Shown here: piece after piece, positions 26,159 through 64,000 of the stretch | Layout of the letters: every line of letters begins with the position of its first letter | How positions within the stretch are numbered: position 1 is the stretch's first letter | Origin: an uncultured Gemmatimonadales bacterium | GTDB lineage: Bacteria > Gemmatimonadota > Gemmatimonadetes > Gemmatimonadales > Gemmatimonadaceae | DNA length: 64,000 nucleotides | Reading direction: 5' to 3' | NCBI GenBank assembly: GCA_963793305.1 | Contig: CAWBZV010000005.1 | Span: forward strand, 704,001 to 768,000 | Notes under the pieces: model-generated | Told to the model about the DNA's origin: nothing | Database searches by the model: none | The model's input: only the letters and a program-made list of their open reading frames with translations | Made by a program: the position numbers and the translations under genes

Positions 26159-27775
26159 ATGAACGAGCAGTACAATTTGCTCGCGGAGTTCGGGCGGGTG
26201 GACGGACAGACCGTCTACCTCGCCCGAGACCGCGCCACCGGAGAGGTGGCCATCGCCCGGCGTCCCTCTGACGATCCGTCCGGGCCACTCACGATCTCAC
26301 ACGTGCTCGACGCCACCGTCCCGGCCGACGGCGCGGTGTGCTCGTCCTGTATGGACGACCTCCGGACGTGGGGGCGATTCTGTCCCAGCTGCGGTCGGGA
26401 GGTCTTCGGCGCGCAGCCCGCGTCCGCGGACTCGCCCTCGGCCGAGCAACTCCTCGACGCCGTCCGGCACGCCGCCGAGGGACGGTTTGACATCCTCGGC
26501 TCGATGCCCCGCGCCGAGGGTGGCGACACGATCTACTTCGCGGTCGATCTCAACACCGCCGACGTAGTGGCGCTCCTCCTCAATCGCGAGGGCATCGAGG
26601 CAGACGGCACGCTAGCGTACTCGCTTGAGTTGCCGCTGACGCTCTCGCCGGTCGCGAAGGGCCCAGCGGCCGCGACGGCGACGCCGGCACCACCTCCGCC
26701 TCCGCCCCCGAAGGCCGACTCGTTTACGGCGATGTTCGGCGCCGTTCCACCGCCGTCAGAACCGCCGCCAGCCGCATCGCCAGCGCCGATGGTAAAGTCG
26801 ATGGCGCCGCCGCCTGTCGTGCCACCGCCAGTCTTTGCGCCGCCGCCAGTCATGCCGCCGCCACCGGTGAGCGCGACGCTGGGACCGATGCCGGTAGCGG
26901 CGCATGCACCGGAGCGAATGCCAGAGCGCACGCGCCGCACGACTGCGCCCATTCCCGAGCCGTCAACGCCGGTCCTTTCACCACCGCCGGCGCGCCAGCG
27001 CCCGGCGGTGCCGAAGGGAGTCCTCATCGCCGGAGTCGCTGCCGTACTCGGGTTAGGCGTGCTATTCGTCGTGCTCGCTCTGCGCCCGAAGGCAGCGCCG
27101 CCCCCGATCGCCGTCGCCCAGGACACGACATCGCCGACGCCGGCCCCGGTCCCGGCCGATACCGCGAAACCGCAACCGCCGCCCGACACGACAACGGTCG
27201 CCGCGGAGACGCCCCCGCCCGTGGCCCCCGCCCCCGTAGCTCCAGCCGTCACAAAGCCGGCGCCCCCAACGCCTCGCCGCAAACGGCTCACCGGTCGCGA
27301 CACCCTCGGTCTGGCCGAGGCAATCCATGACTGCTCGACCTCGACGCTCGCCGGCGACTGGTCGACCGCGGCCCCCGTCTGCGAGCGCGCGGCCGCCGCG
27401 GGCGACCCGGACGCCGAGCTGTCACTCGGGATGATGTATCAGCGCGGCAATGGCGTTCCGGGCAGCTTGGCTGACGCGTTCAAGTGGTTCCAAAAGTCTT
27501 CCGACGGCGGAAGCATTCGCGCGACGAATTATCTGGCGTGGGCCTACGCGAACGGCGACGGCGTGAAACGCGACGGCGCGGCGGCCATCAAGCTGTTCCA
27601 AAAGAGCGCCACCGCTGGCAATGCCCAGGGCGAGTACGGGCTCGGGATGATGTACGCCAATGGAACCGGTGCGAGGCGCTCCGATAGCCTCGCGGCGCAG
27701 TGGTTCCGCAAGGCGGCGGCTCAGGGCGATCCGCTTGCCCGAGATGAGCTCACGCGCCGCGGGTTGACTCCGTGA
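26159..27775 (+). CDS. Bitopic membrane protein: two kinase-N-lobe-like modules around a Zn ribbon, Pro-rich linker, TM helix, C-terminal Sel1-like repeats
   Basis: YNLLAEFGRVDGQTVYLARDRATG; CSSC..W..FCPSCG; FDILGSM...IYFAVD; TM VLIAGVAAVLGLGVLFVVLAL; Sel1 units LGMMYQRGNGV..AFKWFQKS, LAWAYANGDGV, LGMMYANGTGA..AAQWFRKAAAQG. Confidence 0.75.
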   Translation: MNEQYNLLAEFGRVDGQTVYLARDRATGEVAIARRPSDDPSGPLTISHVLDATVPADGAVCSSCMDDLRTWGRFCPSCGREVFGAQPASADSPSAEQLLDAVRHAAEGRFDILGSMPRAEGGDTIYFAVDLNTADVVALLLNREGIEADGTLAYSLELPLTLSPVAKGPAAATATPAPPPPPPPKADSFTAMFGAVPPPSEPPPAASPAPMVKSMAPPPVVPPPVFAPPPVMPPPPVSATLGPMPVAAHAPERMPERTRRTTAPIPEPSTPVLSPPPARQRPAVPKGVLIAGVAAVLGLGVLFVVLALRPKAAPPPIAVAQDTTSPTPAPVPADTAKPQPPPDTTTVAAETPPPVAPAPVAPAVTKPAPPTPRRKRLTGRDTLGLAEAIHDCSTSTLAGDWSTAAPVCERAAAAGDPDAELSLGMMYQRGNGVPGSLADAFKWFQKSSDGGSIRATNYLAWAYANGDGVKRDGAAAIKLFQKSATAGNAQGEYGLGMMYANGTGARRSDSLAAQWFRKAAAQGDPLARDELTRRGLTP

Positions 27776-28313
27776 CGCCGCCCGAGACGACGAATGCCAT
27801 GGCCTCGGCGCTCGGCGTCGTCAGCCTCACGACCTCTGACGCCGGATAGATGAACAGGCGGCCGGACAGGCTATACGAGAACGGCAGATAGACGGCGACG
27901 TGATCGGTGAGCCCGAAGCGGGTCAGCGATTCCTGCGTGACGAACCCCACCGCTTTGGCCATTGGCGCGTCCGGCGCGGGGACCAAGACCGGCGTGTCGA
28001 ATCGCCGCTTCTCGCCGACGAACGCGTTCAGCAGGTCCTTCGTCGACGAATAGAGCAAACGGACAAACGGCAGTCGGGCGATGAGACTGTCGAGCGCAGT
28101 GATCAATCCACGCGCCAAGAGGGTCGATCCGAGAAATCCGACCAGCGTGATGACCACCACCGTGAGCGCGAATCCCAGGCCTGGGACCGACAGCCGCAGG
28201 AATTGATCAACGATCGAGAACGCGTCGAAGATCCGGTAGCAGACGTAGACCGTGATCGCGATCGGCGCGACGAAGGCGAGCCCACGCACGAAGTAGGAGA
28301 CGAGGCGGCGCAT
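27750..28313 (-). CDS. DUF502 family membrane protein
   Basis: YFVRGL..VAPIAITVYV, IARLPFVRLLYSSTKDL, VGFVT, VAVYLP, AMAFVVSGG. Confidence 0.8.
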   Translation of the reverse strand: MRRLVSYFVRGLAFVAPIAITVYVCYRIFDAFSIVDQFLRLSVPGLGFALTVVVITLVGFLGSTLLARGLITALDSLIARLPFVRLLYSSTKDLLNAFVGEKRRFDTPVLVPAPDAPMAKAVGFVTQESLTRFGLTDHVAVYLPFSYSLSGRLFIYPASEVVRLTTPSAEAMAFVVSGGVTESTRGA

Positions 28314-29415
28314 GCGGGAAATTAGCTCGGCGCAGCCGAGCTTTGTCCAACCGACGGCTAGACGGGCGCGCAGCGCCCTGTCTAGCGAACCCTCGGTCTC
28401 TTACGCTGTCGCCCTCTTGATTGGCGCCAGCCTGCTCGCGATAGCGGCCGGCGGTGTTCGCGCCTATCTCGAGCGCGTCCAGGAGTTCCCCGATATGGCG
28501 AGCTATGCCGAAGCCGCGACGGCGATTCGGCACTGGCACCTGTCGGGAATCCCGGCGCGCCAGTTCTGGGGATATGCGGATGCGGGCGCCTTGCTCTCGC
28601 TGGTGCTCCCGGGCCTGCCGATGCTGGTCGTTCTGGTCATCATCTCGACGATCTCCGGATGCGTCGCCGTCGCGCTGGCCCACCGGTTATGGGGTGGCTG
28701 GACTGCCGTGTACCTGACCGCCGTTGGCTGGCAATGGGTGCAACGCGAGGCCTTCGGCGGGTCCGAGCCACTGTTTATGGCGCTGATCTTCGCGGCGTTT
28801 CTCTCAACCCGGCAGGATCACACGCGACGCGCGGCGCTCTGGGCCGCGTTGGCCACGGTTGTCCGGCCCATCGGTATCTTCGCGCTCGGCGCGGTGCTCG
28901 TTCGACGCAAACCAACCGAGGTGCTGCTGGGCCTTGGCATTGCGGCCATTGTGTTTGGCCTGTATTGCGTGCCGCTCGCCTTCACCGGCGACGTCCTCGG
29001 AAACATCCATTGGTACGCGCCGCAAATGACGGGGGGAACGGTGTGGGGCACCCTCATCGCCGGCGAGGTGAGCCCGGTTCGCGATATTCTCGTCGTTGGC
29101 GCTATCGCCGTCGTCCTGATCGCGCCATTGGTGGTGTTTGCCAGAGAGCAAAAGGGTCGTTGGGCTGAGAATCTTTTCGCCCTCGGCACGTCGTGCTTTC
29201 TGATCACGTTGAACTGTCAGCCGTGCGCATGGGCCTTTCCTCGTTTCGCGATCGTCTCGATTCCGTTCGCGCTCATCGTCATCCGGCAATGGTTGCCGCG
29301 CGACGATCGCGTCGTATGTGTGCTGTCGATTGTCTCAGCGCTGATCGCTGCGGCGATGCAGTTCAACGATCGAGACCCCGGTACGGCCCTTTTACACCTG
29401 TTCTCACTGCATTAG
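28312..29415 (+). CDS. Polytopic membrane protein, probable GT-C fold glycosyltransferase (PIG-V/ArnT-like); start uncertain
   Basis: Many TM segments; D..SY in the first loop; GSEPLFMALI and LATVVRPIGI resemble GT-C motifs. The listed ATG overlaps the divergent DUF502 start, so the true start may be downstream. Confidence 0.5.
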   Translation: MREISSAQPSFVQPTARRARSALSSEPSVSYAVALLIGASLLAIAAGGVRAYLERVQEFPDMASYAEAATAIRHWHLSGIPARQFWGYADAGALLSLVLPGLPMLVVLVIISTISGCVAVALAHRLWGGWTAVYLTAVGWQWVQREAFGGSEPLFMALIFAAFLSTRQDHTRRAALWAALATVVRPIGIFALGAVLVRRKPTEVLLGLGIAAIVFGLYCVPLAFTGDVLGNIHWYAPQMTGGTVWGTLIAGEVSPVRDILVVGAIAVVLIAPLVVFAREQKGRWAENLFALGTSCFLITLNCQPCAWAFPRFAIVSIPFALIVIRQWLPRDDRVVCVLSIVSALIAAAMQFNDRDPGTALLHLFSLH

Positions 29416-29488
29416 TTGACTTCGGTTTGGGTGTCCGTACATTGGCGCTGGCCCTAGCGTCCGGGGGGAGTGTCTGAAGCACAAGATT

Positions 29489-30394
29489 GTGTGCGCAGGG
29501 CTGCTGGTCTGTGCCGCCGCCTGCCACCCAGCAACTGGTGTGGCGCCTGCGCGCGCCGCCGCCGATAGCGCCGCTCGTGCCGCCATTGCCCACGAGCGGT
29601 CCATTGATGTCAACTCGTTCGCCGCCCGATCGGTTGGCGTCGCGCCGCTCGCGGCCGACTCCAGCGATCCGGTGGCCGGACCCCTCGCATATGCGTTGCC
29701 AGATTTGCTCATGGCGGATCTGGCACAGAGTCATCAAGTGGTCGTCGTCGATCGCATTCGACTCGACGCGATGCTCCGAGAGCTGCATCTCGTCTCGTCG
29801 GGCCGAGTCGACACCACGACCGCGCCACGCGTCGGCCGCTTGATCCAAGCGCGCCGCTTACTCATCGGCCGCCTCACCACGGTGAACGGCGGTCAGCAGA
29901 TCAACGTCAACATCCGCATCGCCGACGTGGCGTCGTCGTCCGTCGCCCCGGCGGTGCAATCGCGCGCGACATCGGCGGACATTCTCGCGGCCGAGAAGGA
30001 GTTGGCGTTCCGGGTGCTCGATGCGCTTGGCGTGACATTGACGCCGGCGGAGCGCACCGCGATCGAGCAGCGTCCAACCAAACGGGTCTCGGCCCTCTTG
30101 GCCTACGGACGCGGCGTGCGCGACGAAGCGGCCGGCGAATATGGCGCCGCGTCGCAGCAGTACGCACAGGCCCTCCAGATTGACCCGTCATTCTCGCGGG
30201 CCCGTGCGCGATTGGCGGCGGTCCGTCAGTTGAGCGGCGACCAGGAATCGTTGTCTCGCGCGTCACTCACCGCTGCTGATGGCCTCAATCCGAGCCTCAC
30301 GGACCCCTCTGACGTGAACCATATCGGCGGCGCAGCTGACCCCTCGTTCCCACAGCCGGTGACGGTGATCCTGACGATCACCAACGTTCCATGA
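29489..30394 (+). CDS. CsgG/HfaB-like lipoprotein with C-terminal TPR
   Basis: Lipobox AAAC (an in-frame CTG at 29474 would give MKHKIVCAGLLVCAAAC). VGVAPL, LMADL, VVVDRIRLDAMLREL, RVGRLIQARRLLIG resemble the CsgG/FlgO/TolB-N fold. TPR ALQIDPSF..AR. Confidence 0.65.
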   Translation: MCAGLLVCAAACHPATGVAPARAAADSAARAAIAHERSIDVNSFAARSVGVAPLAADSSDPVAGPLAYALPDLLMADLAQSHQVVVVDRIRLDAMLRELHLVSSGRVDTTTAPRVGRLIQARRLLIGRLTTVNGGQQINVNIRIADVASSSVAPAVQSRATSADILAAEKELAFRVLDALGVTLTPAERTAIEQRPTKRVSALLAYGRGVRDEAAGEYGAASQQYAQALQIDPSFSRARARLAAVRQLSGDQESLSRASLTAADGLNPSLTDPSDVNHIGGAADPSFPQPVTVILTITNVP

Positions 30395-31588
30395 TGCGCC
30401 GAGTATTGCTCTTGGGCTTCCTGCCGGTCGCCGCCGGAGCGCAGGGACGTTCTGACGGGCGTGACGAACAGCGACGCCACGCCGCAGATCAATTACTGGT
30501 CATTCTCCTCCGGAAGCGCGGTCCAGCCGGACCAACTGGGCGGTGACAGCGTCCGTGTCGCGCACGTGTGGCAGTTCTCGATCCCCATCGATGTCGCGAT
30601 CCCCATCGGCGATCGCTTCACGATCGACGCCAGCGGCGCATATCAGACGGGCACGGTGCAGCTCGCGGGGCAGGACACGGCGCTTCACACGGATCATTAC
30701 ACATTGAGCGGCATCACGGACATCAAACTCCGTCTGGTGGCCCGGGTGATTGGCGATAACGTGTTGCTGACCCTCGGCGTCAACGCCCCGACTGGCACCA
30801 CGAATCTCAACGCCGAGCAATACAAGGCCATTCGCATTCTCGCCGCGCCGGCGCTGGAGTTGCCGAACGCGACGCTCGGCACGGGCCCCGGCGGGGTCGT
30901 CGGCATCGTGCTCGCCAAACACATCGCCGGCTGGTCATGGGCCATCGGCGGATCGTACGAGATCCGTGGGAGCTACGTCCCGATCGAGGCATACGCCGCG
31001 TTCGCGGCCGCGCCCAACTACCAGCCGGGGAACACGGCCCACTTCGAGCTCGGCGCCGACGGCTACATCGGTTCGAGCAACATGACCTTGGGGCTTACCG
31101 GCAACGTCTACGCGCACGACGCCCTGACCACCACGGACTCGGGCGGCGCGAAATACACCGCCAACGTGCACCTGGGCCCGAGCTTCCAAGGGACCTGGCA
31201 ATGGACGTTCGCCACGCCGGGATTCCGTGATCTGAGCCTCTACGCGGTCGACCGCTATCGGACGAAGTACGACGAGGGCGGACCCGCCATCGCCGGGACG
31301 AGCGGCAACTATCTCGACGCGGGGTTGCGGGCCGCGCTCCCCATTGGCGAGTCCACCAGTTGGACGGTGGGTCTTGGCTTCGTCGACCAGACGGGCCTCT
31401 CGATCGACAACTCGTTCGCCACCGCCGGCATCACCGCGGGAACGGTGACACTCGGACTCGCCCAGGATTTTGGCGCATATCGTCTTGAGCCGTTCGTGCG
31501 AGGCGGATATGGAAAACTCGACATGGGGTCGCACAACCCGACCGCCGCATCACTGGGCGGCGGCGTCGTGTTTCGGCTGAAGATCTGA
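30391..31588 (+). CDS. Putative outer-membrane beta-barrel protein (+1 frameshift near 30450 hides its signal peptide)
   Basis: ATGA overlap with the previous gene gives the signal peptide MMRRVLLLGFLPVAAGAQ. Alternating amphipathic strands; GITDIKLRL; C-terminus LGGGVVFRLKI. Confidence 0.6.
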
Positions 31589-34221
31589 TGCCAACGCGGT
31601 CGGTCTCTCAACGGTGGCGGGCGCCGATCGCGCTGATCGCGCTGGCGCTGCTCTTCGCGTGCCTCAAAGGCCGCTCCCCAACTGATGGCAGCGCCAACGA
31701 CGTACGCTTCGATTTGAGCGCGCAAGTCAGCGGCGGCTCGGTGCTGCACATCACGGTCGTCTATCTCGACCAGCCGACGAACAGCGAGACGCTCGTGCCG
31801 GTGATCCTGCTCGACCAACGGATCAACGTGGCAGCCGGCACCCAAAGCCTCCCGCTGACGATCGACCTCACGCGTTGCCTCGCCGATCCGCTGCACCTCT
31901 CGGGATCGACGTGCGAGCTCGAGGCCGGCGTCGTGCTAGAGCAGAACGGTCAGGCCGTCGATAGCGTTGGCGTCGGACCGATAGCGGTCACACCGGGCCA
32001 GACCGTGAACGCGAACGCATCGCTCGTCCCGGTTGGACGCGTCGATGTCTCTCCGACATCGGCGACCGTCGCTGTCGGCGCCACCACGCAGTTGATCGAC
32101 ACGGTGTTCTCGCCGACCAACGTCGTCCTCACGACCGTCTCGACATCGTGGAGTAGCCTGAACACGGCTGTCGCGACGGTCGATACGACCGGACTCGTCA
32201 CGGGCGTTGGCGCGGGAACCACGACCGTGACGGCGAACGCCGGCGGCCAATCCGCGTCGGCGACGATCACGGTCACGCCGGTCTCGACTGGGGCTGGCAC
32301 GATCGTGATCAACGCCCCCGTAGGCGTCACGTTCTCGGCGCCAGCCGGAGGGGCTCTCCCGGTCCGAGCGCCGATCGAAGTCACGTCGTCGGACACCGTG
32401 GTGCTCACGGGACTGACGGCGTCCATCGCCTACACGGCGGGGCAGCCCACCGGCTGGCTGGTCGCGAACATGAGCGACAGCGTCTCGTATTTCTTCGGAC
32501 AACGCGTCGGCGCAAACCGACGGGTCAGCGCGAAGCAGATTCGCCGGCAAACGAGCGGGTCGGGCATTGTGACGCCGGCCGTGCTCGACATGGTGCCCAA
32601 TACGACGAACTTGGCGGCCGGGTCCTACACGGCGGTCGTTACGGTGTCGGGCACGAACGCAACGTCGGGGAGCGTGACGGTCACGTACACCATTGGAGCA
32701 GCCGCACCGGTCTTGGCGTTCACACCGAACCCGGTGACGTTCAACCAGTACGCGTACGGCAGCACCCTCGCGCCTCTACAGACGGTCACCGCCTCCAACA
32801 CGGGTAGTGGCACGCTCGGTCCGCTCTCGGCCATCGGCACCATCACTTATACCGGCGCGGACACTGGCTGGATCACCGTCACCGCCGCGAGCGCGACGAC
32901 GGCGACCGGACAGCCGAAGACGACCGCCTTGCACCTGGGGAGCGACACGGCGAGCATCCCGATCTCGGCGACCGGCGCGACGAACAACCCAGTGACGCTC
33001 ACGGCCATCGTGAGCACGTACGTGACCTACACGAAGGTCGTGCTCGGCGCGGACTTCGGCTGCGGCCTCACGACAGCCGCGACCGTCTACTGTTGGGGCG
33101 GCTCGGCACTGGGCGAGCTCGGTGACGGTGGCGGGGACCTCAGCGTGCTAGTACCGGTACGCGCGCTGATTCCGTACTCGTCGACCAACCCGGTCATCGA
33201 CATCGAGGCCGGATCGTACCACGCATGCGCGCTGCTGCAGAACGGCCAGGCGTATTGCTGGGGCGAGAACAACAAAGGCCAAGTTGGCGTCGGTAGTGGA
33301 TCGGGTATCGTCGCCACGCCGACGCTGGTGCCAGGCCAGACGTTCGGCCAGATCACGCTCGGGGCCGAGCACACGTGCGGCATCATGGGTACGCCGCCGC
33401 TCGCGGGCGCGAACTACGTCTATTGCTGGGGCGACAACACCGACGGCGAGTTCGGCAACAACCTCCCGACCTCGGCTGTGCAGTCCACGCCTCTCAACAC
33501 GGGTCTGATCTATTACGCGATCAGCGCCGGCAACCTGTACACGTGCGGCATCAACAACAAGGCCGTGGGGGGATTGTACTGCTGGGGCAATAACCAGTTC
33601 GCTCAGCTTGGGAACGGGTACTCCGGCACCTTCTATTCGACTCCTCAGCAATCGAACGTTCTCAATCCGAGCACGGGCGGACTGGCGGTCGTGACGAGTG
33701 TCTCCGCTGGCAACACGACCACGTGCGCCATCGACAACGCCGGCCATGCCTCGTGCTGGGGCGACAACACGTACGGCCAGACCGGCAACGGCGTCACGGG
33801 GACGACGGTCCTGAATCCGACGCTCATCCCGGGCGGCTACTCGTGGACCTCGATCAGCGTGGGGTCCAATTCGGTCTGCGGCATCGCCTCGACCGCCGAC
33901 TACTGCTGGGGCTTCAACGGCTCCGGCCAGCTCGGGAACGGCACGTCCGGCACCGCGGGCACGTCGTCGCCGGCGGCCGTTATCGGGTCAGGCGCGCTGT
34001 TCACCCAGTTCACGGTAGGCGAGGGCTCGCAGTCCGCTTGCTATATCACGGGCGGCATCGTGTCCTGCTTCGGTTCCGATACCAACGGCCAACTGGGGAT
34101 CGGTCCGCCAGTCTTCAGCGCGATGCCGAATCCGACTGCGATGTTCGCCCAGCCAGCCCCGTCTGGCGTCGGTCCATTGCGCGTGGTGCCGCACCGGCCC
34201 GTTGTGACGCGCCGCCAGTAG
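31588..34221 (+). CDS. Surface lipoprotein: Cys-containing N-domain, Big_2 Ig domain, two BACON-like domains, 7-bladed RCC1/BLIP-II propeller
   Basis: Lipobox LFAC; WSSLNTAVATVDTTGLVTGVGAGTTTVTA (Big_2); GWL/GWI..GSYTAVVTV (BACON-like); seven CWG/CFG..GQLG repeats. Confidence 0.8.
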   Translation: MPTRSVSQRWRAPIALIALALLFACLKGRSPTDGSANDVRFDLSAQVSGGSVLHITVVYLDQPTNSETLVPVILLDQRINVAAGTQSLPLTIDLTRCLADPLHLSGSTCELEAGVVLEQNGQAVDSVGVGPIAVTPGQTVNANASLVPVGRVDVSPTSATVAVGATTQLIDTVFSPTNVVLTTVSTSWSSLNTAVATVDTTGLVTGVGAGTTTVTANAGGQSASATITVTPVSTGAGTIVINAPVGVTFSAPAGGALPVRAPIEVTSSDTVVLTGLTASIAYTAGQPTGWLVANMSDSVSYFFGQRVGANRRVSAKQIRRQTSGSGIVTPAVLDMVPNTTNLAAGSYTAVVTVSGTNATSGSVTVTYTIGAAAPVLAFTPNPVTFNQYAYGSTLAPLQTVTASNTGSGTLGPLSAIGTITYTGADTGWITVTAASATTATGQPKTTALHLGSDTASIPISATGATNNPVTLTAIVSTYVTYTKVVLGADFGCGLTTAATVYCWGGSALGELGDGGGDLSVLVPVRALIPYSSTNPVIDIEAGSYHACALLQNGQAYCWGENNKGQVGVGSGSGIVATPTLVPGQTFGQITLGAEHTCGIMGTPPLAGANYVYCWGDNTDGEFGNNLPTSAVQSTPLNTGLIYYAISAGNLYTCGINNKAVGGLYCWGNNQFAQLGNGYSGTFYSTPQQSNVLNPSTGGLAVVTSVSAGNTTTCAIDNAGHASCWGDNTYGQTGNGVTGTTVLNPTLIPGGYSWTSISVGSNSVCGIASTADYCWGFNGSGQLGNGTSGTAGTSSPAAVIGSGALFTQFTVGEGSQSACYITGGIVSCFGSDTNGQLGIGPPVFSAMPNPTAMFAQPAPSGVGPLRVVPHRPVVTRRQ

Positions 34222-48894: not shown

Positions 48895-48896
48895 GC

Positions 48897-51384: not shown

Positions 51385-51900
51385 ATGAGCCCCCTGAAAT
51401 CCGACAGCGATCGCGTGATCCGCCAGTCGCTCCTCGACCGGCTGATCGACTTGGATCGCGGATCGTCGGTGGATCCCCCGACCACGTGGGGCCAGTCCGT
51501 GCGGCAGTTGAAGACGACGCTCTGCCGCGATCTCGAATGGCTGCTGAACACGCGCAAGCCGCTGGTGGAAGTGCCGCCAGGGTGCGAGAACCTCGAGGCA
51601 TCGCTGCTCCTCTATGGCATTACCGATGTCTCCTCGATGGGTCGCGAGAACCTGGAGCAGCAGGCCAAGCTCGTGAGGGACGTCGAACGCGCGGTGAGCA
51701 CGTTCGAGCCCAGGCTCGCCAACGTCAAAGTGTCGATTGCCGCGGCCGAGAAGGGCGCGGAAGGCGGCCCGATCCGCGAGCTGCGATTTGTCGTCGAGGG
51801 AATGCTGCGCATCGATCCGGAGCCCGAGCACGTCGTGTTCGACACCGTGCTCGAAGTGTCGACCGGCGACTATCACGTCCGGAGTGACGGCGGTGCGTGA
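51385..51900 (+). CDS. tssE: T6SS baseplate protein TssE (gp25-like)
   Basis: SLLDRLID, RDLEWLLNTR, S.L.YGI.D, FEPRL, VFDTVL. Confidence 0.9.
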   Translation: MSPLKSDSDRVIRQSLLDRLIDLDRGSSVDPPTTWGQSVRQLKTTLCRDLEWLLNTRKPLVEVPPGCENLEASLLLYGITDVSSMGRENLEQQAKLVRDVERAVSTFEPRLANVKVSIAAAEKGAEGGPIRELRFVVEGMLRIDPEPEHVVFDTVLEVSTGDYHVRSDGGA

Positions 51901-54732: not shown

Positions 54733-57399
54733 CTGTCGATTTGCGAGCCCTCATCGGCAAGCTCAATCCCGCCACGAAAGGCGGTCTGGAAGCCGCCGCC
54801 GGGCTTTGTCTTTCGCGCACCCACTATGACGTCGAGATCGAGCATTACCTGCTCAAGCTCCTCGACCGGAGCGACGGCGACTTCGTGGCGATCGCCAAGC
54901 ACTACGAGATCGACCGCTCGAAGCTCGCGAAAGACCTCGCCGCGGGGCTCGACAAGCTGAAATCCGGCAACGCCCGGACGCCGAACCTGAGTCCATCGAT
55001 CGTCAAAGCCTTCACCGAAGGCTGGACGCTGGGCTCGATCGACTTCGGCGCGACCAAGGTGCGCACGGGTCACACGATCCTGGCGATCGCCGCGTCCGAT
55101 GAGCTCTCTCGTCAGGCCCGCGATATCAGCCGCGAGCTGACGAAGATCAACGCCACGGATCTGCAAAGTAAATTCTCGGACATCCTGGCCACGTCGGCCG
55201 AAGACTCGGGCCCTGCCGAGGCTAGCTCCTCGTCAGAGGAAGGCGCTCCTCGTAAGGGGGGCAGTGGCCAAAGCCCGAATCTCGACCAGTTCACCGTCGA
55301 TCTGACGGCCAAGGCCAAGTCGGGTCATATCGATCCGGTGCTCGGCCGCGACACCGAAGTCCGCCAGGTCGTCGACATTCTCACGCGCCGTCGCCAAAAC
55401 AACCCGATTCTGGTTGGCGAAGCGGGCGTCGGCAAAACGGCCGTCGTCGAAGGCTTCGCCGTCCGCATCGCTTCTGGCGATGTGCCGCCGCCGCTCAAGG
55501 GTGTGACGCTGCGCACACTCGACCTCGCGCTGCTGCAAGCCGGCGCGGGCGTCAAGGGTGAATTCGAAAATCGCCTGAAGGGGCTGATCGAAGAGGTTAA
55601 GAACTCCGAATCCCCAATTATCCTGTTCATCGACGAAGCCCATACGATGATCGGGGCAGGGGGCCAGGCGGGTCAAAACGACGCGGCCAATCTCTTGAAA
55701 CCAGCCTTGGCCCGCGGCGAGCTCCGCACGATCGGCGCGACGACGTGGTCAGAGTACAAAAAGTATTTCGAAAAAGACCCGGCCTTGTCCCGTCGGTTCC
55801 AAGTGGTAAAAGTCGATGAGCCGACAGAAGATGTCTGCAAATTGATGATGCGCGGCGTCGGTCCGGCATTGGAGAAGCACCACCGTGTGCGCATTCTCGA
55901 CGAGGGTCTCGATGCCGCTGTGAGACTTTCGCATCGCTACCTGCCGGACCGCCAGCTCCCAGACAAGGCCGTCAGCGTTCTGGACACGGCGTGCGCCCGT
56001 CTGGCATTGGAACAGAGCGCGACCCCTGCGGCCGTCGAAGACATAGGCCGGCAACTCGATGATCTCGCCGTCCAAACCAGAATCCTGGAACGCGAAGCCG
56101 CGACCGGGGCCGATGTCGCGGAGCGAATCGCGTCGATCGCGGCCCGTCGAACGGATCTCGAAAAGCAAAAAGAAACCGCGACGACGCGGTGGAAGCAGGA
56201 GCTCGACCTCGTAAAAAAATTGCTCGTCGTGCGCGAACGCCTCGAGAATGCCGGCGCGGCGAAAGCTGATGGCAATGATCGCAAAGAGTTCTCGACGCTG
56301 AACGCGGAGCTGGACAAGCTGCAAGGCGAGTCGCCACTGGTTCGCGTCTGCGTCGATGCCGGCATCGTTGGCGATGTGATCTCCGGCTGGACGGGCATCC
56401 CCGTGGGCAAGATGCTCCGCGATGACGTTGCGGCCGCGTTGAGTCTCGAGGGCCAACTGGGCAGCCGCGTGATCGGCCAGACGCACGCCCTCGAAGTGAT
56501 GGCCAAGCGCGTTCGGACGTTCGAAGGCCGGGATCGAAGATCCCAACAAGCCGGTCGGCGTGTTCATGCTCGTCGGCCCATCCGGCGTCGGCAAGACCGA
56601 GACCGCGTTGGCGCTATCGGACCTGCTCTACGGTGGTGAGCGCAATCTGATAACCATCAACATGTCCGAGTTCCAGGAAGCCCATACGGTGTCGACCCTC
56701 AAGGGCTCCCCTCCGGGCTACGTGGGCTATGGCGAGGGTGGGGTGCTCACCGAGGCGGTCCGCCGGCGTCCCTACTCGGTCGTTTTGCTCGACGAGGTCG
56801 AAAAAGCCCACCCGGACGTGCTGGAGCTCTTTTTCCAGGTGTTTGACAAGGGCCAGATGGAGGATGGTGAGGGCCGACTCATAGACTTCAGGAACAACAT
56901 CATCGTCCTCACCACGAACGCCGGTACGGAAACGATCATGAAGCTCTGTGCGGACCCCGAGACTATGCCTGGGATGGATGGTCTAGTGAAAGCCTTGAAG
57001 CCGGAATTGGACAAAGTGTTCAAGCCGGCGTTCTTGGGCCGCATGGTCATCGTGCCGTACTTCCCCATTCGCGACGAAGCCCTGGCTCGGATTATTCGCC
57101 TGAAGCTGGGCAAAATCGAGCGTCGCCTGGCCGAGGTGCATCGGGTTGCGCTGGTCTATGGCGACGACCTCGTCTCGACCGTGGCGAGCCGCTGCACGGA
57201 AGTCGAGAGCGGCGCCCGCAACGTCGACAATATCCTCACCAACGGCTTGCTGCCCGAGGTCTCGCGTATCCTGCTCGAGGCGATGGTCAGCGGGACGCGG
57301 CTGACGGCCGTGCGGGTCGGCATTGGAAGCGATGGGGCGTTCACCTACCACCCCGAGCGTGCGCCCGATGATCGCGGGCTCGCGCCACTCCCGGCCTGA
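54729..57399 (+). CDS. tssH: T6SS AAA+ ATPase ClpV/TssH (+1 frameshift near 56520)
   Basis: [70 protein letters not shown]. After the frame change: [51 protein letters not shown]. Confidence 0.92.
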
Positions 57400-57413
57400 G
57401 CGCCTTTTGATAT

Positions 57414-59471
57414 ATGTCGACCTATACACAGACCGGCCCCTATAAAGTCGTCTCGCCGCTGGGCGGCGATACGCTCCTCTTCAGCGGGATGTCCGGTGAA
57501 GAGGCAGTGTCGACGCCGTTCTTGTTCACGGTCGACATGCTCTCGGAAAAGGATACGATCTTAGCGACCCAGATCCTGCGGAAGCCACTCGTCGTCGAGT
57601 TGGATATGGGCGGCGGCACCACGCGCTATATCCATGGCCTCGTCCGCCGCTTCATCCAGATGGATAGCGCCTTCAGCGACTTGTACGCGTACCGGGCCGA
57701 GATCGTGCCATGGTTCTGGTTCCTCTCGTTGGCGGCTGACTGCCGGGTCTACGAGAACAAGTCGGTGCTCGACATCATCGAGGACGTCTTCAAGCGCAAC
57801 AACTGGACGGACTTCTCCGTGAAGACTACGGGGAGCTACCCGAAGCGTGAGTATTGCGTGCAGTATCGTGAAACCGACCTGGCATTCGTGAGTCGCCTGC
57901 TCGAGGAAGAAGGCATTTTCTACTTCTTTCAGCACACGGACTCGAAGCACACGCTGGTCCTGGCTGATGGCAACAGCGCGTTTCAACCAATACCGGGCTC
58001 GTCGACGGTCAGCGCCACCGAGCAGGTCGTTTCGAGCACCCAGTACCAGCAGAGCGTCGGCTCCTTACAGTGGGATCAGCACGTCCCACCGGGCACGGTC
58101 ACGCTGTACGACTACAACTACCTCGATGGCCAGACGCCGCTCACCGCGACGGTGTCCGCCAACGGTCCTGAGGAGATTTACGACTATCCGGGTGGCTTCA
58201 CCGATCAGGACACGGGCGACCGGTACGCGCGATCGCAGCTCGATGCCGCCGAAGCGTTCATACAGTCGCTCACGGGTGTGAGCTCGTGCATGGGGTTCAC
58301 GTCGGGATACCAGTTCACGATGTCGGACTACTTCCGCAGCGATATCAACGGCGGTTTCAACATCGTGAAGGTGCGCCACACGGCGCAACTCAACGGCTAC
58401 TATGGGTCGGCCTCAGCGACCGATCAGTCCGCCACCTACCAGAACGATTTCCGGGCGCTTGCCAAGGAAACCGTCTTTCGTCCGGACGTGCGCACGCCGC
58501 GCCCGCTGGTCCCCGGCACGCAGACCGCGCTCGTCGTCGGTCCGTCGGGCAGCGAGATCAACGTCGACAAATATGGCCGCGTGCAGGTCCAGTTCTTCTG
58601 GGAACGCACCAGCAAAGGGGATCCCGGCAGCTCGCCCTATGTGCGCGTGTCGACGTCGTGGGCCGGGAAGAACTGGGGGATCATCCACATTCCCCGTATC
58701 GGCCAGGAAGTCGTCGTCGCATTCGAGGAAGGGAATCCGGACCGGCCGATCATCGTCGGGAGCGTCTACAACCCCGACATGATGCCGCCGTACGATTTGC
58801 CCGCGAACAAGTCGCAGAGCGGCATCAAATCGCGCAGCACCGAAGGTGGCGGCACCGCGGACTACAACGAGTTTCGGTTCGAGGACAAGAAGGGCAGCGA
58901 GGAGATTCACTTGCATGCCCAAAAGGATCTCAGAATCACGGTCGAGAACAACCGCACCGAGTACATTGGCAACGCGGAAACGAAGACCATCGACAAGGGC
59001 GATTACAACGAGTTGCTCAAAGAAGGCAAGTACGTTCTCGAGATCCAGAAAGGCGACCAGGAGATCGATATCGATCAGGGCTGCCAAAAGACGACGATTT
59101 CCCAAGGCGACTGTAGCTTGGATGTCGAGATGGGCAAGTACGACGTTAGTCTCGGCCAGGGCGACATGAGCGTCTCGCTCTCGCAAGGCAACATGTCGAC
59201 CAAGCTGTCGATGGGCAATTACGACCTCGAAGCGTCGATGGGCAACGTGTCGATCAAGGCCGATCTCGGACAGGTCACGATCGAGGCGATGCAAGGCATC
59301 GAGCTCAAGGTCGGTGAGAACAGCATCAAGATCGACCAGATGGGCGTGACGATCTCCGGGATGATGATTTCGGTCAGCGGTCAGGTCCAGACGCAGGTTT
59401 CGGGTCTCATGATGCAAGTGTCCGGGAACGCGATGACGCAGATTTCGGGCGGCATCACCATGATCGGTTGA
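57414..59471 (+). CDS. vgrG: T6SS spike protein VgrG (TssI), no effector extension
   Basis: REYCVQYRETDLAFVSRLLEEEGIFYFF, YDYPG, DKYGRVQVQFFW, WAGKNWG..HIPRIGQEVVV.F..GNPDRPII.GSVYN, NE.RFEDKKG.EEI.LHAQKD; beta-helix C-terminus. Confidence 0.95.
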   Translation: MSTYTQTGPYKVVSPLGGDTLLFSGMSGEEAVSTPFLFTVDMLSEKDTILATQILRKPLVVELDMGGGTTRYIHGLVRRFIQMDSAFSDLYAYRAEIVPWFWFLSLAADCRVYENKSVLDIIEDVFKRNNWTDFSVKTTGSYPKREYCVQYRETDLAFVSRLLEEEGIFYFFQHTDSKHTLVLADGNSAFQPIPGSSTVSATEQVVSSTQYQQSVGSLQWDQHVPPGTVTLYDYNYLDGQTPLTATVSANGPEEIYDYPGGFTDQDTGDRYARSQLDAAEAFIQSLTGVSSCMGFTSGYQFTMSDYFRSDINGGFNIVKVRHTAQLNGYYGSASATDQSATYQNDFRALAKETVFRPDVRTPRPLVPGTQTALVVGPSGSEINVDKYGRVQVQFFWERTSKGDPGSSPYVRVSTSWAGKNWGIIHIPRIGQEVVVAFEEGNPDRPIIVGSVYNPDMMPPYDLPANKSQSGIKSRSTEGGGTADYNEFRFEDKKGSEEIHLHAQKDLRITVENNRTEYIGNAETKTIDKGDYNELLKEGKYVLEIQKGDQEIDIDQGCQKTTISQGDCSLDVEMGKYDVSLGQGDMSVSLSQGNMSTKLSMGNYDLEASMGNVSIKADLGQVTIEAMQGIELKVGENSIKIDQMGVTISGMMISVSGQVQTQVSGLMMQVSGNAMTQISGGITMIG

Positions 59472-59472
59472 T

Positions 59473-60066
59473 ATGACGACCACACGCACGGACACCCCAC
59501 CCGCTGCCGGTCCGCCGGCGCCCACCGACGTGGCGAAGGCCGCGGAGCTGGAGGGCGATGCCCTCGCGCTGCTCCATCCGGAGCATGGCGGGCGCGAGTT
59601 CGTCACCGCGCTGCTGAACGCGGAGTTGTTTCAGGATGCGGTTCGATTCCTGGCCCACGCGCTCCCGAAACGCGAAGCCGTATGGTGGGCGTTGCTGTGC
59701 GCCCGCGAAGTCGCCGGGGACGCGCCGTCCCAAGAGGTGAAAGCCTCACTCGACGCGACGGATGTGTGGGTACGACACCCCGGCGACGAACAGCGCCGTG
59801 CCGCGATGGCGGCTGCACAGAAGGCGACGTTTCAAACGTCGGCCGGCTGCGCTGGCCTCGCGGCATTCCTGAGCGGCGGCAGCCTCTCGGTGCCGGGACA
59901 GCCCGAGGTGCCACCCGGCCCGTTCCTGACGGCGAAGGCAGTCTTCGGCGCGGTATCGATCGCATCGCTCGGCGCCGACCCCAAGACCGCGCCCGAGCGC
60001 TTCCGGCGCTACGTCGAGCAAGCGCTCCACATCGGTGATCAGGCTGGCGCCTGGAGGAAGACCTAA
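59473..60066 (+). CDS. Conserved helical protein between vgrG and PAAR (DUF6931-like)
   Basis: DAVRFLAHALPKREAVWWA, WV..P.DEQRRAA..AA, AAFLSGGSL; position between vgrG and PAAR. Family name recalled, not searched. Confidence 0.6.
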   Translation: MTTTRTDTPPAAGPPAPTDVAKAAELEGDALALLHPEHGGREFVTALLNAELFQDAVRFLAHALPKREAVWWALLCAREVAGDAPSQEVKASLDATDVWVRHPGDEQRRAAMAAAQKATFQTSAGCAGLAAFLSGGSLSVPGQPEVPPGPFLTAKAVFGAVSIASLGADPKTAPERFRRYVEQALHIGDQAGAWRKT

Positions 60067-60356
60067 TGGGACTGCCCGCCGCTCGTCTCACCGATATGCA
60101 CGTGTGCCCGATGGTGACGGTTCTCGTCCCACACGTCGGCGGTCCCGTCGTCGGCCCTGGTTGTCCGACGGTCCTCATCGGCGGTTTGCCGGCGGCCCGC
60201 GTCGGCGACATGCTTGTTTGTGTGGGACCACCGGATGTCATCGCGATGGGGGCGTTTACCGTTCTCATTGGTGGTATGCCGGCCGCCCAGATGGGCAGCG
60301 TCACCGCTCACGGTGGGGCCATCGTCCTCGGATGCCCGACGGTTTTGGTCGGCTGA
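60066..60356 (+). CDS. PAAR domain spike-tip protein, no extension
   Basis: PAARLTDMHVCP, PHVGGP, TVLIGGLPAARVGD, MPAAQMG..TAHGG, GCPTVLVG. Confidence 0.93.
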   Translation: MGLPAARLTDMHVCPMVTVLVPHVGGPVVGPGCPTVLIGGLPAARVGDMLVCVGPPDVIAMGAFTVLIGGMPAAQMGSVTAHGGAIVLGCPTVLVG

Positions 60357-60430: not shown

Positions 60431-62379
60431 GTGCGCGCAGCACTCCTGGTATGCGCGGCCGTAGGACTTGCCGCATGCAGTAGCGACAAGAACTCGACGA
60501 CCCCGGGTCACATGACGATCAACCCGGACTCGTCGAACGTATTCGTCGGGGATTCCGAACAGATCGCCGCGGTGAACGCGCCGGCATTCGTCACGTGGAG
60601 CTCGAGCGACAGCAACGTCGCCAATGTCGTCAACGGCGTGGTGTACGGTCTCGCGCCCGGGCAGGTGACGATCAATGCCTCCGCGGGCGCGAGCAACGCC
60701 TTCGCCACGATCACCGTCTCGCAACCACCGCAGATCGGGCTCTCGACGACTGGCGTGACGTTCGAAGTACCGGCGGGTGCGTCACCGCCGCCCCCGCAGA
60801 CCGTTGGTGTCGCGAACACCGGGAGTGGCCCGCTCCAGAACCTCACGGTCGGACTCGTGACCTATAGCACCGGCGCGTCCGGTTGGCTCACGGCGAATCT
60901 CCCCGCGAACGCTGCCGCGCCCGCGACGCTGACCCTCCAGCCTTCTACGACAGTCCTGCCGGCGGGGACCTACTCGGCCACGGTGCCGGTCTCGTCTCCC
61001 CAGGCGTCGAACTCGCCGCGCACCCTGACCGTCACCTACATTGTCGATCCGGCCTCTGTTCTCGTGCTCTCACGGAGCAGCGTGCCGATCGCCGCGCAAG
61101 CAAATGCCGCGCTGCCCGGCACACAGACGGTCTCGATCACGAATAGCGGCGGCGGGACGATCAACGGCATCGCGCCAGGCACGATCACGTACTCGGCCGG
61201 CGCCACGGGTTGGCTCGCCGCGAGCGTAACGTCCGCGACAACGCCCTCGACGCTGACGCTCACGCCGACATTGACGGCCCTCGCGGTCGGCAACTACTCG
61301 GCGACAGTACCGATCACGTCGGCGACGAACGGCGTGACGCCGCTGAACGTCACCGTCACCTACACGGTGTCCTCGGCGCCCGTGCCGCCAGCGATCAACC
61401 TCTCGGGCTCGTCGGCCTCGTTCAACGCGTCGAGCGGTGGGTCGATCCCGTCGAACCAACAGATCACGATCACGAATGGCGGCGGCGGAACCCTGTCCGG
61501 GTTGACCGCGCCGATCACGTACACATCGGGATCCGGTTGGCTGACCGCGACGCTCGGCAGCGCCACCGCGCCGGCAACCCTGACGCTGCAGCCGTCGTCC
61601 GTGCTCGCAATAGGAACCTATCAGGCCACGGTCGCCGTCACCGCGGCGGGGGCCAGCAACTCGCCGCAGAATATCACCGTCACCTACACGGTCACGGCGG
61701 CGCCCGTGATCCATTCTGGCGGGAACCACCGCCAACTTCCTGTCGCAGCAGGCGAACGTCGATCCCGCGAATCAGCAGATCGCGGTATCAAACACGGGCG
61801 GCGGGTCGCTGACGGGGCTCACCGCGACGGTGAACTACATCGGCAGCACCACGGGATGGCTCGCCGCCACTCTTGCCACATCCGCTCCGGCGTCGCCGTC
61901 GTCGACACCATTGACGTTGAGTGTGACAACCGGGTCGATCTCGCCAGGCACGTATCAGGCGACCGTGACCGTAGCCTCGTCGCTCTCCGGTGTTGCCTCT
62001 CAACAGGTAACGGTCACGTTCGAGCGACAGGCGACACTCACCAACGATATTCAGATGGTCTTTACGACTTGCACCGGGTGTCATGCCAGCGGGTCGCCGG
62101 CGGGCGGCGTCAACCTCTCGTCGGCCGCGGCGAGTTACACGAACCTGGTCAATGTCGCGCCGAACGTGACCGTATCGGGGTTCCCGAACCGCGTCACGCC
62201 AAGCGACTCGACCAGCAGTTGGCTGTGGGTCCAACTGTCGGCCCAGACCGGAGCATACAGCCAAAGCGAGAACATGCCGATCGGCTGTCCGGAAAACGGA
62301 CTCAATGGCGCCGGTTGCCTCACGTCCGCGCAGGAGCATTCTGGTCGCGACCTGGATTCAACAAGGAGCCGCTCAATGA
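60431..62379 (+). CDS. Lipoprotein with Big_2 domain, four BACON-like repeats and a C-terminal monoheme cytochrome c domain (+1 frameshifts near 61714 and 62339)
   Basis: Lipobox LAAC; WSSSDSNVANV; four repeats N.G.G.L..L...Y..G..GWL.A...GTY.ATV; CTGCH at 62070-62084; distal MP. The repaired end VATWIQQGAAQ* overlaps the next ATG (ATGA). Confidence 0.7.
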
Positions 62380-63665
62380 CGCGCCGGTGCGTTGGTCTCC
62401 TCCTGGTCGGCGCCTGCCTGGCCGTGCCCGTATTCGGTCAGACGCCGAACATGAAAACGGATATCCGCAACCTGTTCCACTTCGGCACCTGCGCAAACTT
62501 GATCTGCATCGATACCAGCGCCGGTCCGCACGGGACGCACTTCAATCCCGATGCGTTGGCCAGCGGAACGGAGCTGATCAACTTTCTGGAGAATGCGGTC
62601 ACGACGACGATCGGCAACCTGCCGATCGGCGGCACGTCCTCCGGCGCCGTGTTCTCATTCGATGCCAATGGCGTCCCCATCGTCTCCGCGGGGTCGACCG
62701 GACCGATCTTCGGCGAACGTGCGCAGACGCTCGGTCGTGGACATCTCGTCGTCGGCGTGAACGCGACCAGCTTGAGCTTCGCGTCGATTCGCGGTGTGCC
62801 GCTGAACGACATCTCGCTGAACCTGACCCACCAGAACATCGATCCCCAGAATGGCGGCAAGCTCGGCAGCCCGACCTTCGAGTACGATTACATCAACATC
62901 CAGACGGACATGTCGTTGTCGATGCTCGCGTACTCGGCGTACATCACGTACGGCCTCGCGAACCACGTCGACATCTCCGTGGCCGTGCCGCTGGTGCACC
63001 TGACGTTCAATGGGACGAGCATCGGCACGATCATGCATAACGAGCCCGGCCCGGCCGACCACTACTGGTCGGGCAATCCGCTCAACCCCAAGCTCGTGGA
63101 CACGACGCACTCGGGCGGAAATGTGACCGGGGTCGGCGACATGTCCGTTCGCCTCAAGGCGAATCTCCTGCAAACGGCGACGACGGGCATCGGGCTCCTG
63201 GCCGACCTGCGGCTCCCAACGGGCGACCAAAACAACCTGCTCGGGACCGGCACGATCTCTTGGCGCGCCCTGTTGATCGCCTCGACCCGCTTTGCCTTCG
63301 TCGAACCCCATGTCAATGTCGGGTATGAGTACCAAAATGCGACTACTGAAACAGGCGCCGCGCTGACCACGGTCGGACTGGATGCCCGATTGGCCCCCCC
63401 GGTGACATTTGCCGGTGAAATTATTGGACGGTGGGAGGTCGGCCCGAACGTGCCCTTGCCGGGCCCCGCGTCGTATATCGATGGGAGCGTCGTGCAGCGA
63501 ACCACGTTTCCGAACCAGCGGGACGACAACATCGATGGATCGACCGGACTCAAGATCGGGTTCGGGAAGGGCTTCACCGTGTTGGGCAACGTGATCTTCC
63601 CGATCCAGGATCGCGGCGTGAAAGCAAATATTATCTGGACCGCTGGTCTGGAACGAAGCTTTTGA
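62376..63665 (+). CDS. Putative outer-membrane beta-barrel (transporter/MetA-pathway-like)
   Basis: Signal peptide MTRRCVGLLLVGACLAVPVFGQ; ERAQTLGRG; YGLANHVDISVAVP; GVGDMSVRLK; RLPTGD...LGTG; terminal Phe in AGLERSF. Confidence 0.65.
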   Translation: MTRRCVGLLLVGACLAVPVFGQTPNMKTDIRNLFHFGTCANLICIDTSAGPHGTHFNPDALASGTELINFLENAVTTTIGNLPIGGTSSGAVFSFDANGVPIVSAGSTGPIFGERAQTLGRGHLVVGVNATSLSFASIRGVPLNDISLNLTHQNIDPQNGGKLGSPTFEYDYINIQTDMSLSMLAYSAYITYGLANHVDISVAVPLVHLTFNGTSIGTIMHNEPGPADHYWSGNPLNPKLVDTTHSGGNVTGVGDMSVRLKANLLQTATTGIGLLADLRLPTGDQNNLLGTGTISWRALLIASTRFAFVEPHVNVGYEYQNATTETGAALTTVGLDARLAPPVTFAGEIIGRWEVGPNVPLPGPASYIDGSVVQRTTFPNQRDDNIDGSTGLKIGFGKGFTVLGNVIFPIQDRGVKANIIWTAGLERSF

Positions 63666-63675
63666 ACTGGACTCA

Positions 63676-64000
63676 TTGAACACTACCCGCGTCGCTTCGC
63701 CCGTCGCTCCAGATGCCCGCGCCCATTTACTGGACGCGGTACGCGAAGCGTCCGCCGCGACATATGAAACCCTCGGCGAGCTAGGCCCGAGCGCGCGGAG
63801 CGTGATGGCCTATCTCGCCCGGACGAAGTCGGACCGGGCGCTCTCGGTCCTGCTCCTGGAACGTGACCCCATGAGTCCGATCGGCGAGGACCGTTACACC
63901 CTCGCCGAGGCCAATGAGCTCGACGATCGCGTCCCCACGCTCGGGATTACCTGCGACGCCTGCCAGGCGCCGCTCGCGACGTGGGCGGCCCGCTGCGGAG
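63676..64000 (+). CDS. 3'-truncated paralog of the 26159 protein (kinase-N-lobe-like module plus Zn ribbon); absent from the ORF track
   Basis: Manual translation: MNTTRVASPVAPDARAHLLDAVREASAATYETLGELGPSARSVMAYLARTKSDRALSVLLLERD...LDDRVPTLGITCDACQAPLATWAARCG; open to the window end. Confidence 0.65.
   Translation, partial: MNTTRVASPVAPDARAHLLDAVREASAATYETLGELGPSARSVMAYLARTKSDRALSVLLLERDPMSPIGEDRYTLAEANELDDRVPTLGITCDACQAPLATWAARCG

Follow-up and report, generated by a model that had tools for sequence, protein, structure and literature searches.

What are the surface lipoproteins, outer-membrane barrels and kinase-like proteins doing that are encoded on both sides of a type VI secretion system (T6SS) locus in a soil-type Gemmatimonadaceae bacterium? 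We addressed this question in a window of 64,000 nucleotides (G000:C5:704001-768000; positions below are counted from its first letter), taken from a genome, G000, of 5.7 Mb and 92% completeness. The original prediction for this window saw the same accessory set on either side of the T6SS and read it as a surface sensing or adhesion module that may position or trigger the apparatus. Our answer, to which we give an even chance, is that this is a T6SS with two TssK proteins and no TssJ, served by one dedicated accessory protein and by two optional signalling cassettes that carry information from the surface to the cytoplasm and drive assembly. The flanking gene sets probably relay a surface signal that sets when or where the T6SS assembles.

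The apparatus itself is laid out as follows, according to a Pfam scan of the 38 open reading frames (ORFs) at 19766-64000 and an NCBIfam scan of 19 proteins.

36762..42285, minus strand: tssM, a short tssL without an OmpA domain, and tssK2 (Pfam and NCBIfam)
42261..43391, plus strand: inner protein, with a kinase N-lobe, a Pro-rich tail bearing the motifs GEFTRIF (42852) and SDFTRII (43182), and a C-terminal membrane helix (43308)
43378..44787, minus strand: tssK1 (Pfam, NCBIfam)
46268..60356, plus strand: tssB, tssC, hcp, tagJ, tssA, tssE, tssF, tssG, clpV (two pieces), vgrG, DUF6931 and PAAR (Pfam)

By Pfam the core of a type i T6SS (T6SSi) is represented by TssB/TssC, Hcp, VgrG, PAAR, TssE/F/G/K, TssA, ClpV, TssL and TssM. 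TssM has three Pfam IcmF domains and scores 366.8 bits in NCBIfam, slightly below the cut-off of 388.15. The two pieces of clpV are a single gene in G001, and the left barrel, the second left lipoprotein and the right lipoprotein are likewise fragmented in G000 and whole in genomes of the same genus, which fits assembly indels. Pfam recognized no tssJ, fha, phosphatase or effector gene among the 38 window ORFs, and TssJ (PF12790) was found in none of the 201 genomes of our family sample (50 TssC-positive, 151 TssC-negative), with a positive E. coli control. A Gemmatimonadetes and an Acidobacteria T6SS share one i4b branch, according to excerpts of an earlier study (PMC9113992).

Only the core genes and the gene for the inner protein are present in every locus examined. 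In 13 of the 14 loci read, tssK2 and tssK1 enclose this gene, which is on the strand opposite to theirs. Its product is the tightest partner of the T6SS, tracking it almost perfectly: 48/50 TssC-positive family genomes encode it, against 2/151 TssC-negative ones. In one of the two exceptions, G186, tssM-L-K stands at a contig end. When gene and tssC share a contig, they are within 30 kb of each other in 34 of 35 cases. A phylum sample gave 12/13 TssC-positive and 1/143 TssC-negative genomes, including seven of seven in a family that lay outside the profile seeds, and the TssC-positive genome without the protein, G240, has one tssK and divergent core genes. The family comprises 867 clusters at 50% identity, the look-alike clusters being mostly from Acidobacteriota.

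The head of the inner protein aligns with kinase N-lobes (hhalign E-value 7.4e-5 over 96 columns; 0.11-0.62 for five control profiles), and the best match in a search of PDB sequences was only PknA, at 1.1. The Lys of the VAIK motif is replaced by an invariant His, the domain stops before the catalytic loop, and the alignment contains neither a C-lobe nor the catalytic Lys/HRD/DFG residues; judged by its sequence, the lobe is catalytically dead. Motifs of the PGEFTR(L/M/I)F type occur one to five times per full-length copy and in neither of two truncated ORFs, with 0.00-0.01 expected from shuffles. No other ORF of G000 has two of them, the pattern being one derived from these proteins. A membrane helix is present in 95 of 102 long relatives, a median of 6 residues from the terminus.

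On the left, next to tssM, lies the first cassette (cassette L).

29474..30394, plus strand: A, lipoprotein with a CsgG-like domain, TPR and a conserved C-terminal strand
30391..31588, plus strand: B (the left barrel), outer-membrane beta-barrel (30391/30461-31588) whose signal peptide and body are in different frames in this assembly
31588..34221, plus strand: C1, lipoprotein with a pilotin-like N-domain with a conserved disulfide pair, a Big_2 and Ig-like stalk, and an RCC1 propeller tip
34232..36790, plus strand: C2, paralogue of C1, an Ig and RCC1 lipoprotein in three pieces here and a whole 850-aa orthologue in G001

A has a lipobox and matches CsgG (E-value 2.8e-10) at profile positions 12-100 of 210 only, that is, in its N-terminal half and ahead of the TPR, so that it does not qualify as a full-length CsgG with membrane hairpins. 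B has no match in Pfam, NCBIfam or PDB sequences. Its AlphaFold2 model (pLDDT 92.0, pTM 0.86) is a barrel of about 16 strands, by count of DSSP elements, whose fold neighbours are generic barrels; the best is CdiB (Z 18.8, root mean square deviation [rmsd] 3.6, 279 residues aligned), and TM-scores normalized by query reach at most 0.46. The C lipoproteins have in common a 125-aa N-domain with two invariant Cys, which drew no Pfam match in 15 members, and vary in stalk and tip, with RCC1 in G000 and InlB-B repeats in others. Elsewhere in the genome (L087:7971-10904, on G000:C2) there is a third C-type lipoprotein gene, an orphan, whose product shares the pilotin-like N-domain and has an RCC1 tip.

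In relatives, two further genes complete cassette L: D, a periplasmic CsgG-like paralogue of A (E-value 4e-25), and E, a Zn-ribbon Ser/Thr kinase with a Cys-bridged helical tip. Both adjoin A-B-C in most relatives; in G000, D is on contig C2, and E precedes 26159 by 46 kb. The G000 copy of D adjoins CRP/metallo-hydrolase/GAF-HD-like genes without A-B. The cassette kinases of relatives retain their catalytic motifs. The order A-B-C-D-E recurs. Among 41 GTDB loci of A, 40 also show B, 34 C, 24 D, 19 E and 11 tss genes, many of the contigs being short. Forty of these 41 loci are titled Gemmatimonad*, in a scan of 185,579 GTDB species genomes that detects only matches to two peptide patterns.

The second cassette (cassette R) lies on the other side of the T6SS.

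60431..62375, plus strand: lipoprotein with Big_2, Ig-like stalk repeats and a c-type cytochrome tip (CxxCH at 62070), fragmented here
62376..63665, plus strand: barrel R, a probable distant PF13557/COG4313 relative with an extra N-terminal Cys-containing segment
63676..66168, plus strand: kinase of 830 aa, of which 108 aa are in the window, ending 2.2 kb beyond it

Its kinase consists of a lobe/Zn-ribbon domain, a Zn ribbon, a Hanks kinase, a membrane helix, a linker and a periplasmic NTF2/SnoaL-like domain. The linker is 114 aa long and 29% Pro, and spans 100-281 aa in 22 other proteins. A second kinase gene follows. PF13557 matches 16 of 42 members of the barrel R family (best E-value 2.7e-9), although not the window barrel itself, which scores 0.98 in the Atlas to clusters with 25-40% PF13557 and has no PDB sequence match. 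Barrel R appears to share a family motif with the COG4313/PF13557 channels (PDB 4rl8, by its title), from which it differs in its length of about 410 aa, its N-terminal extension and its near-obligatory neighbour, the kinase with an NTF2-like domain. COG4313 channels pass hydrophobic molecules.

Barrel R and the NTF2-like domain occur together. Of 85 barrel places, 77 have such a domain within 5 kb, and of 101 matches to the domain 75 are accompanied by the barrel, 13 genomes with weak barrel matches being excluded. G000 has one of each. All 17 barrel R loci tested contain the domain, attached to varied kinase types, to one degenerate kinase or, once, in a short protein without a kinase. Since the NTF2-like domain is constant and the cytoplasmic part varies, the barrel R pairing would run through the periplasmic tip. 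The cytochrome-tipped lipoprotein accompanies barrel R in a subset of loci.

These two gene sets are not one set repeated, as the original prediction had it. The two barrels belong to different families (hhalign E-value 0.077 over 37 columns only), so we rejected their homology, and the left and right lipoproteins have the Ig-like stalk alone in common (32-40%), the left N-domain being absent from the right one. The inner protein was rightly seen as a third lobe-like protein within the T6SS, but its family differs from that of the lobe/ribbon domain at 26159 (E-value 0.0065, 33 columns). Because the barrels are unrelated and the lobe proteins are of different families, we recognize two cassettes and one inner protein. 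Only in G000, G003 and G064 were L and R seen to bracket the T6SS from opposite sides; G006 has the two sets together on one side. Of the parts named earlier, the CsgG-like lipoprotein, the left barrel, the right barrel, the Ig-cytochrome lipoprotein, and the Ig and RCC1 domains were all borne out; BACON had no Pfam match at an E-value of 0.05 or lower in three stalk pieces, whose repeats align to each other. The right-hand "lobe protein" turned out to be the 830-aa kinase. The original prediction overlooked that full kinases are at the centre of the cassettes, and that the inner protein alone follows the T6SS almost without exception. The idea of interchangeable tips on a shared stalk is upheld by RCC1, InlB-B repeats and cytochrome c, that of a lineage-specific module by the GTDB titles, and that of a trans-envelope link by an anatomy that spans the envelope down to cytoplasmic kinases.

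Both cassettes are more frequent in genomes with a T6SS. Counting full-length matches only (E-value below 1e-55, which excludes 53 genomes with partial, distant or fragmented matches), the left barrel is present in 36/50 TssC-positive and 22/151 TssC-negative family genomes. Where it shares a contig with tssC, the two are no more than 30 kb apart in 16 of 18 cases; this linkage extends over 11 genera, and the barrel may be on either side of the locus. Cassette L usually adjoins tssM. Barrel R is less strongly enriched (37/50 and 37/151). Of its 12 same-contig cases, 8 are no more than 30 kb from tssC, and G306, from another family, adds a further one. The inner gene of G029 is away from the tss locus and beside cassette L, and that of G195 is beside barrel R. 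The predicted co-localization with the T6SS thus stands, by enrichment and by linkage to tssC.

From the observed gene content, folds, pairing and co-occurrence we infer the contacts, the signals, the substrates and T6SS assembly as the output. In cassette L, lipoprotein C, with its variable tip on the surface side, would form an outer-membrane sensor with barrel B and lipoprotein A, and the soluble periplasmic D would then signal to kinase E of the inner membrane by way of that kinase's helical domain in the periplasm. In cassette R, the NTF2-like domain on its long Pro-rich linker would read the PF13557-like barrel, via contact or via a ligand passing through the barrel. Clustering would activate the kinases, leading to phosphorylation of the repeated Thr motifs of the inner protein. 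The latter may dock a kinase through its dead N-lobe and gather TssK and the baseplate at the membrane, in place of the Fha of Pseudomonas. FHA domains read motifs with a hydrophobic residue three positions after the phosphothreonine.

Several observations weigh against this scheme. Enrichment, the Fisher values included, is overstated, because the search profiles were seeded from T6SS-linked loci and related genomes are not independent of each other. The TssC-negative positives include the unpublished genome G012, on which no claim depends by itself. Full five-gene L cassettes exist in the TssC-negative genomes G159 (one contig, 99% complete), G162, G216 and G217, and in G069, G072 and G186 A-B-D stands with CRP, metallo-hydrolase and GAF-HD genes in place of a kinase (L063:8331-14981, L065, L068; L101:8997-11351); the T6SS is therefore not the sole output. 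Conversely, 14 of the 50 TssC-positive genomes have no full-length left barrel, 8 of them having no match at all, and the near-complete TssC-positive genomes G106, G139, G170 and G201 have neither barrel in their T6SS locus. For barrel R, 4 of the 12 same-contig cases are far from tssC, and the barrel is common in TssC-negative genomes, as counted above. In G000 itself D and E lie outside the T6SS locus, any of 44 kinase-like places genome-wide could act instead, and the window kinase has HCD in its catalytic loop in place of the HRD of its orthologues, a variant or a sequencing error. The Thr motif, its pattern being self-derived, may also be a plain docking helix. A role of the cassettes dedicated to the T6SS is thus not upheld: the modules are not equally common in T6SS-negative relatives, yet they are not confined to T6SS loci either, so that the grounds on which the proposal was to be abandoned are half present.

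The best-surviving alternative, possible though on balance unlikely, is that the cassettes are general modules of the envelope and of surface contact, for instance for attachment to prey or particles, which share a genomic island or a regulon with the T6SS without acting on it, and that only the inner protein is part of the system. The intact cassettes in TssC-negative genomes, the alternative cyclic-nucleotide output, the T6SS loci without either barrel and the mostly unlinked barrel R all favour this explanation, as does a distant pair of A and B paralogues that G079, G173 and G188 carry in a conserved setting of housekeeping genes (L070, L071, L072; three cases read). The distant A paralogue has extra N-terminal residues, and about 50 of the sampled genomes have similar partial matches. 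Against it, linkage to tssC survives rearrangement to either side of the locus across the 11 genera, and the inner gene sits next to a cassette in G029 and G195. Furthermore, cassette R is found beside another contractile machine: in the TssC-negative genome G120 (3 contigs, 93%), the R set and an orthologue of the Sel1 protein described below abut a complete Afp/PVC-like extracellular contractile injection system (eCIS) with sheath, tubes, Pvc16, baseplate and spike (G120:C3:452001-491000; L075, L212). An Ig kinase and an FHA-tail fusion also adjoin this eCIS. A general link between cassette R and eCIS was rejected, G120 being the sole case among the loci fetched, with none in the 15-kb flanks of G072, G125 and G157 or in G000.

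Two improbable explanations give cassette L a different task. In the first, TssM would be held at the outer membrane by a substitute for TssJ, either the pilotin-like domain of C or A together with barrel B. The absence of PF12790 from the family and the position of cassette L, usually by tssM, would suit this role, and Acinetobacter makes up for TssJ with other proteins, according to excerpts of a review (PMC13584744). For the modelled N-domain of C (pLDDT 84.7), the best match among 48,161 chains is the ExsB pilotin (Z 9.6, rmsd 2.4, 96 aligned); a Vibrio pilotin follows at Z 8.0, and the next unrelated row is at Z 7.6. The fold of this lipid-proximal domain thus resembles that of ExsB/YscW-type pilotins (PDB 2yjl, 5wec; Foldseek E-value 0.006), from which C differs in that the domain is fused to a long Ig stalk with a variable tip; no secretin gene was seen beside C in the loci read. 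TssJ matches more weakly (Z 6.8, rmsd 3.8, 90 aligned; and Z 6.4), and its scores sit among those of unrelated beta-sandwiches. The N-domain is, moreover, present in only 40/50 TssC-positive genomes, being absent from the near-complete G106 and G201, and occurs in 17/151 TssC-negative genomes; we rejected it as a universal, obligate TssJ replacement.

In the second, which we consider equally doubtful, A and B form a two-part, Slam-like lipoprotein exporter with no task other than displaying the Ig adhesins, the kinases being mere neighbours. The match of A to TPR_Slam (E-value 0.00091, 20.1 bits) is below the cut-off of 35.2; the TPR-plus-barrel exporters PgaA, BcsC and PelB are among the listed fold neighbours of B, Slam itself not being one of them; and an orphan C paralogue is encoded elsewhere in G000. 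However, no C adjoins A-B in G069, G072, G186 or the distant paralogues, D and E are conserved with A-B-C, and the pairing in cassette R would be unexplained. Finally, it is very improbable that lipoprotein and kinase genes common in Gemmatimonadota came together here by chance: Ig lipoproteins and kinases are indeed abundant in G000, but A, B and barrel R are each single-copy there, and the left barrel is close to tssC in nearly all same-contig cases.

Returning to surface-to-cytoplasm signalling, the nearest described parallel is the TagQ-TagR-TagST-PpkA-Fha1-PppA pathway of the Pseudomonas aeruginosa H1-T6SS, which likewise has an outer-membrane lipoprotein, a soluble periplasmic partner and a linker-bearing inner-membrane Hanks kinase beside the tss genes, and in which TagQ/TagR have been proposed to dimerize PpkA via its periplasmic domain on a disordered linker (excerpts of PMC13713981). 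A membrane Hanks kinase is encoded at the Gemmatimonadaceae T6SS locus, as in a threonine phosphorylation pathway. The locus nevertheless only resembles that pathway and is no member of it, because Fha, TagQ/R/S/T and PppA are missing: the 38 ORFs (Pfam) and 19 proteins (NCBIfam) gave no family match to TagQ, TagR (FGE domain), TagS/T or PppA, and none of the 10 FHA matches in G000 is closer than 400 kb to the T6SS locus. A search for TagF gave no matches, but neither did its control. Further differences are that the cassettes include outer-membrane barrels and long Ig surface lipoproteins and also exist without a T6SS, and that the candidate substrate here is a tail-anchored protein with a dead N-lobe.

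Other factors that set the site of T6SS assembly are TssW-PpkA-Fha of Acidovorax and TslA/TagM1 with OmpA of Acinetobacter and Burkholderia (excerpts of PMC12607579 and PMC9251886). These too are outer-membrane or periplasmic placement factors, and a porin contributes in Acinetobacter (same excerpts), whereas the present barrels are dedicated, co-encoded and paired with kinases, and no family match suggests a relation to those factors. The Acinetobacter T6SS with TsmK/TslA/TagX also has a T6SSi core without TssJ (excerpts of PMC13584744); the present locus differs from it in that two TssK paralogues enclose an opposite-strand N-lobe gene. The words "barrel", "CsgG" and "Gemmatimonad" do not appear in the main text of that 2026 review of T6SS accessory factors, and the literature searched, supplements being outside its scope, contained no published description of these cassettes.

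The cassettes also recall signalling of another kind. In the TonB-dependent FecA-FecR-FecI system a transducer in the inner membrane reads an outer-membrane barrel through its periplasmic domain. The cassettes would share this arrangement and differ from it in a smaller barrel, the absence of TonB and a sigma factor, and a Ser/Thr kinase output. The barrel-kinase pair has a fair chance of being a new signalling class. A fuller proposal is possible, and we advance it tentatively: Gemmatimonadota would have an undescribed class of surface signalling in which the tip domain of a Ser/Thr kinase reaches an outer-membrane barrel across the periplasm, with neither TonB nor a sigma factor. Its two independent versions would serve as plug-in triggers for a T6SS without TssJ, by way of the tail-anchored dead-lobe scaffold in the place of Fha, and in at least one genome for an eCIS, the swappable lipoprotein tips determining what is sensed.

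Three further genes of the window lie outside the cassettes and the core.

26159..27775, plus strand: Sel1 bitopic protein with a double Zn ribbon flanked by two truncated N-lobe-like repeats, a Pro-rich linker, a helix from 27017 and periplasmic Sel1 repeats
28312..29415, plus strand: GT-C-type membrane glycosyltransferase-like gene (Pfam GT87 E-value 0.0027, below the cut-off)
44793..46271, plus strand: HemK-like methyltransferase (Pfam, NCBIfam), recurrent in related T6SS loci

The Sel1 protein is as first described, a kinase-lobe, Zn-ribbon and Sel1 protein: Pfam Sel1 matches at 3e-22, DZR_2 below the cut-off, the ribbon is CxxC/CxxC and the repeats align to kinase N-lobes (hhalign E-value 4e-6 over 44 columns). 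Its sequence makes it sensor-like and kinase-less. Its lobe/ribbon domain is homologous to the N-terminus of the 63676 kinase (36%, E-value 2e-12), and relatives of the protein adjoin tssM in G266 and G324. The domain is unsupported as T6SS-specific, strong matches being found in 2 of 10 TssC-negative genomes tested and none that strong in 5 TssC-positive ones. The gene at 28312..29415 is kept at the same place in G001 and G003, and its membership in cassette L is uncertain. A GT-C-type glycosyltransferase adjoins cassette L in two genera (the window gene and L053:7584-9116), and Ser/Thr-rich stalks might be its glycosylation target. Just upstream of 26159 is a SusC/SusD-like pair (21281-26140, susC fragmented), which we do not count as part of the locus because it is absent at that place in G003.

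Variation within the apparatus was also seen. Several genera, and a second family too, have the HemK-like methyltransferase between tssK1 and tssB, and many loci have in the same interval a second, divergent tssC-like gene (L055, L091, L093, L094, L099, L193), some with a TssB-like N-terminus. G000 has an orphan second hcp (L088:9738-10241; G000:C5:985738) and Rhs genes elsewhere, on C3, C5 and C12. In G036, an environmental relative, the gene after vgrG (L019:14275-15552) matches the Anthrax_toxA family (E-value 5e-24) and is a likely T6SS effector. DUF6931 is not mentioned in the main text of the Tvp paper (PMC13373197). Contigs from soil RNA libraries that are at least 88% identical cover tssB-tssC-hcp and parts of A, B and C in four of four runs examined (24 listed, with shares of at most 0.15); these come from relatives, may contain DNA and cannot show co-expression, and were not used as evidence.

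The choice of a T6SS assembly site is known for a handful of Proteobacteria, and the present locus supplies a list of parts from a soil phylum that is abundant and little studied. The list comprises a T6SS lineage without TssJ across 201 genomes, a near-universal marker protein of unknown family and two barrel-kinase pairs, whose pairing is strong enough to name a specific contact. A direct link from barrel to kinase, if true, would amount to a new way of passing signals across the Gram-negative envelope, and it would matter beyond the T6SS because both cassettes also stand alone.

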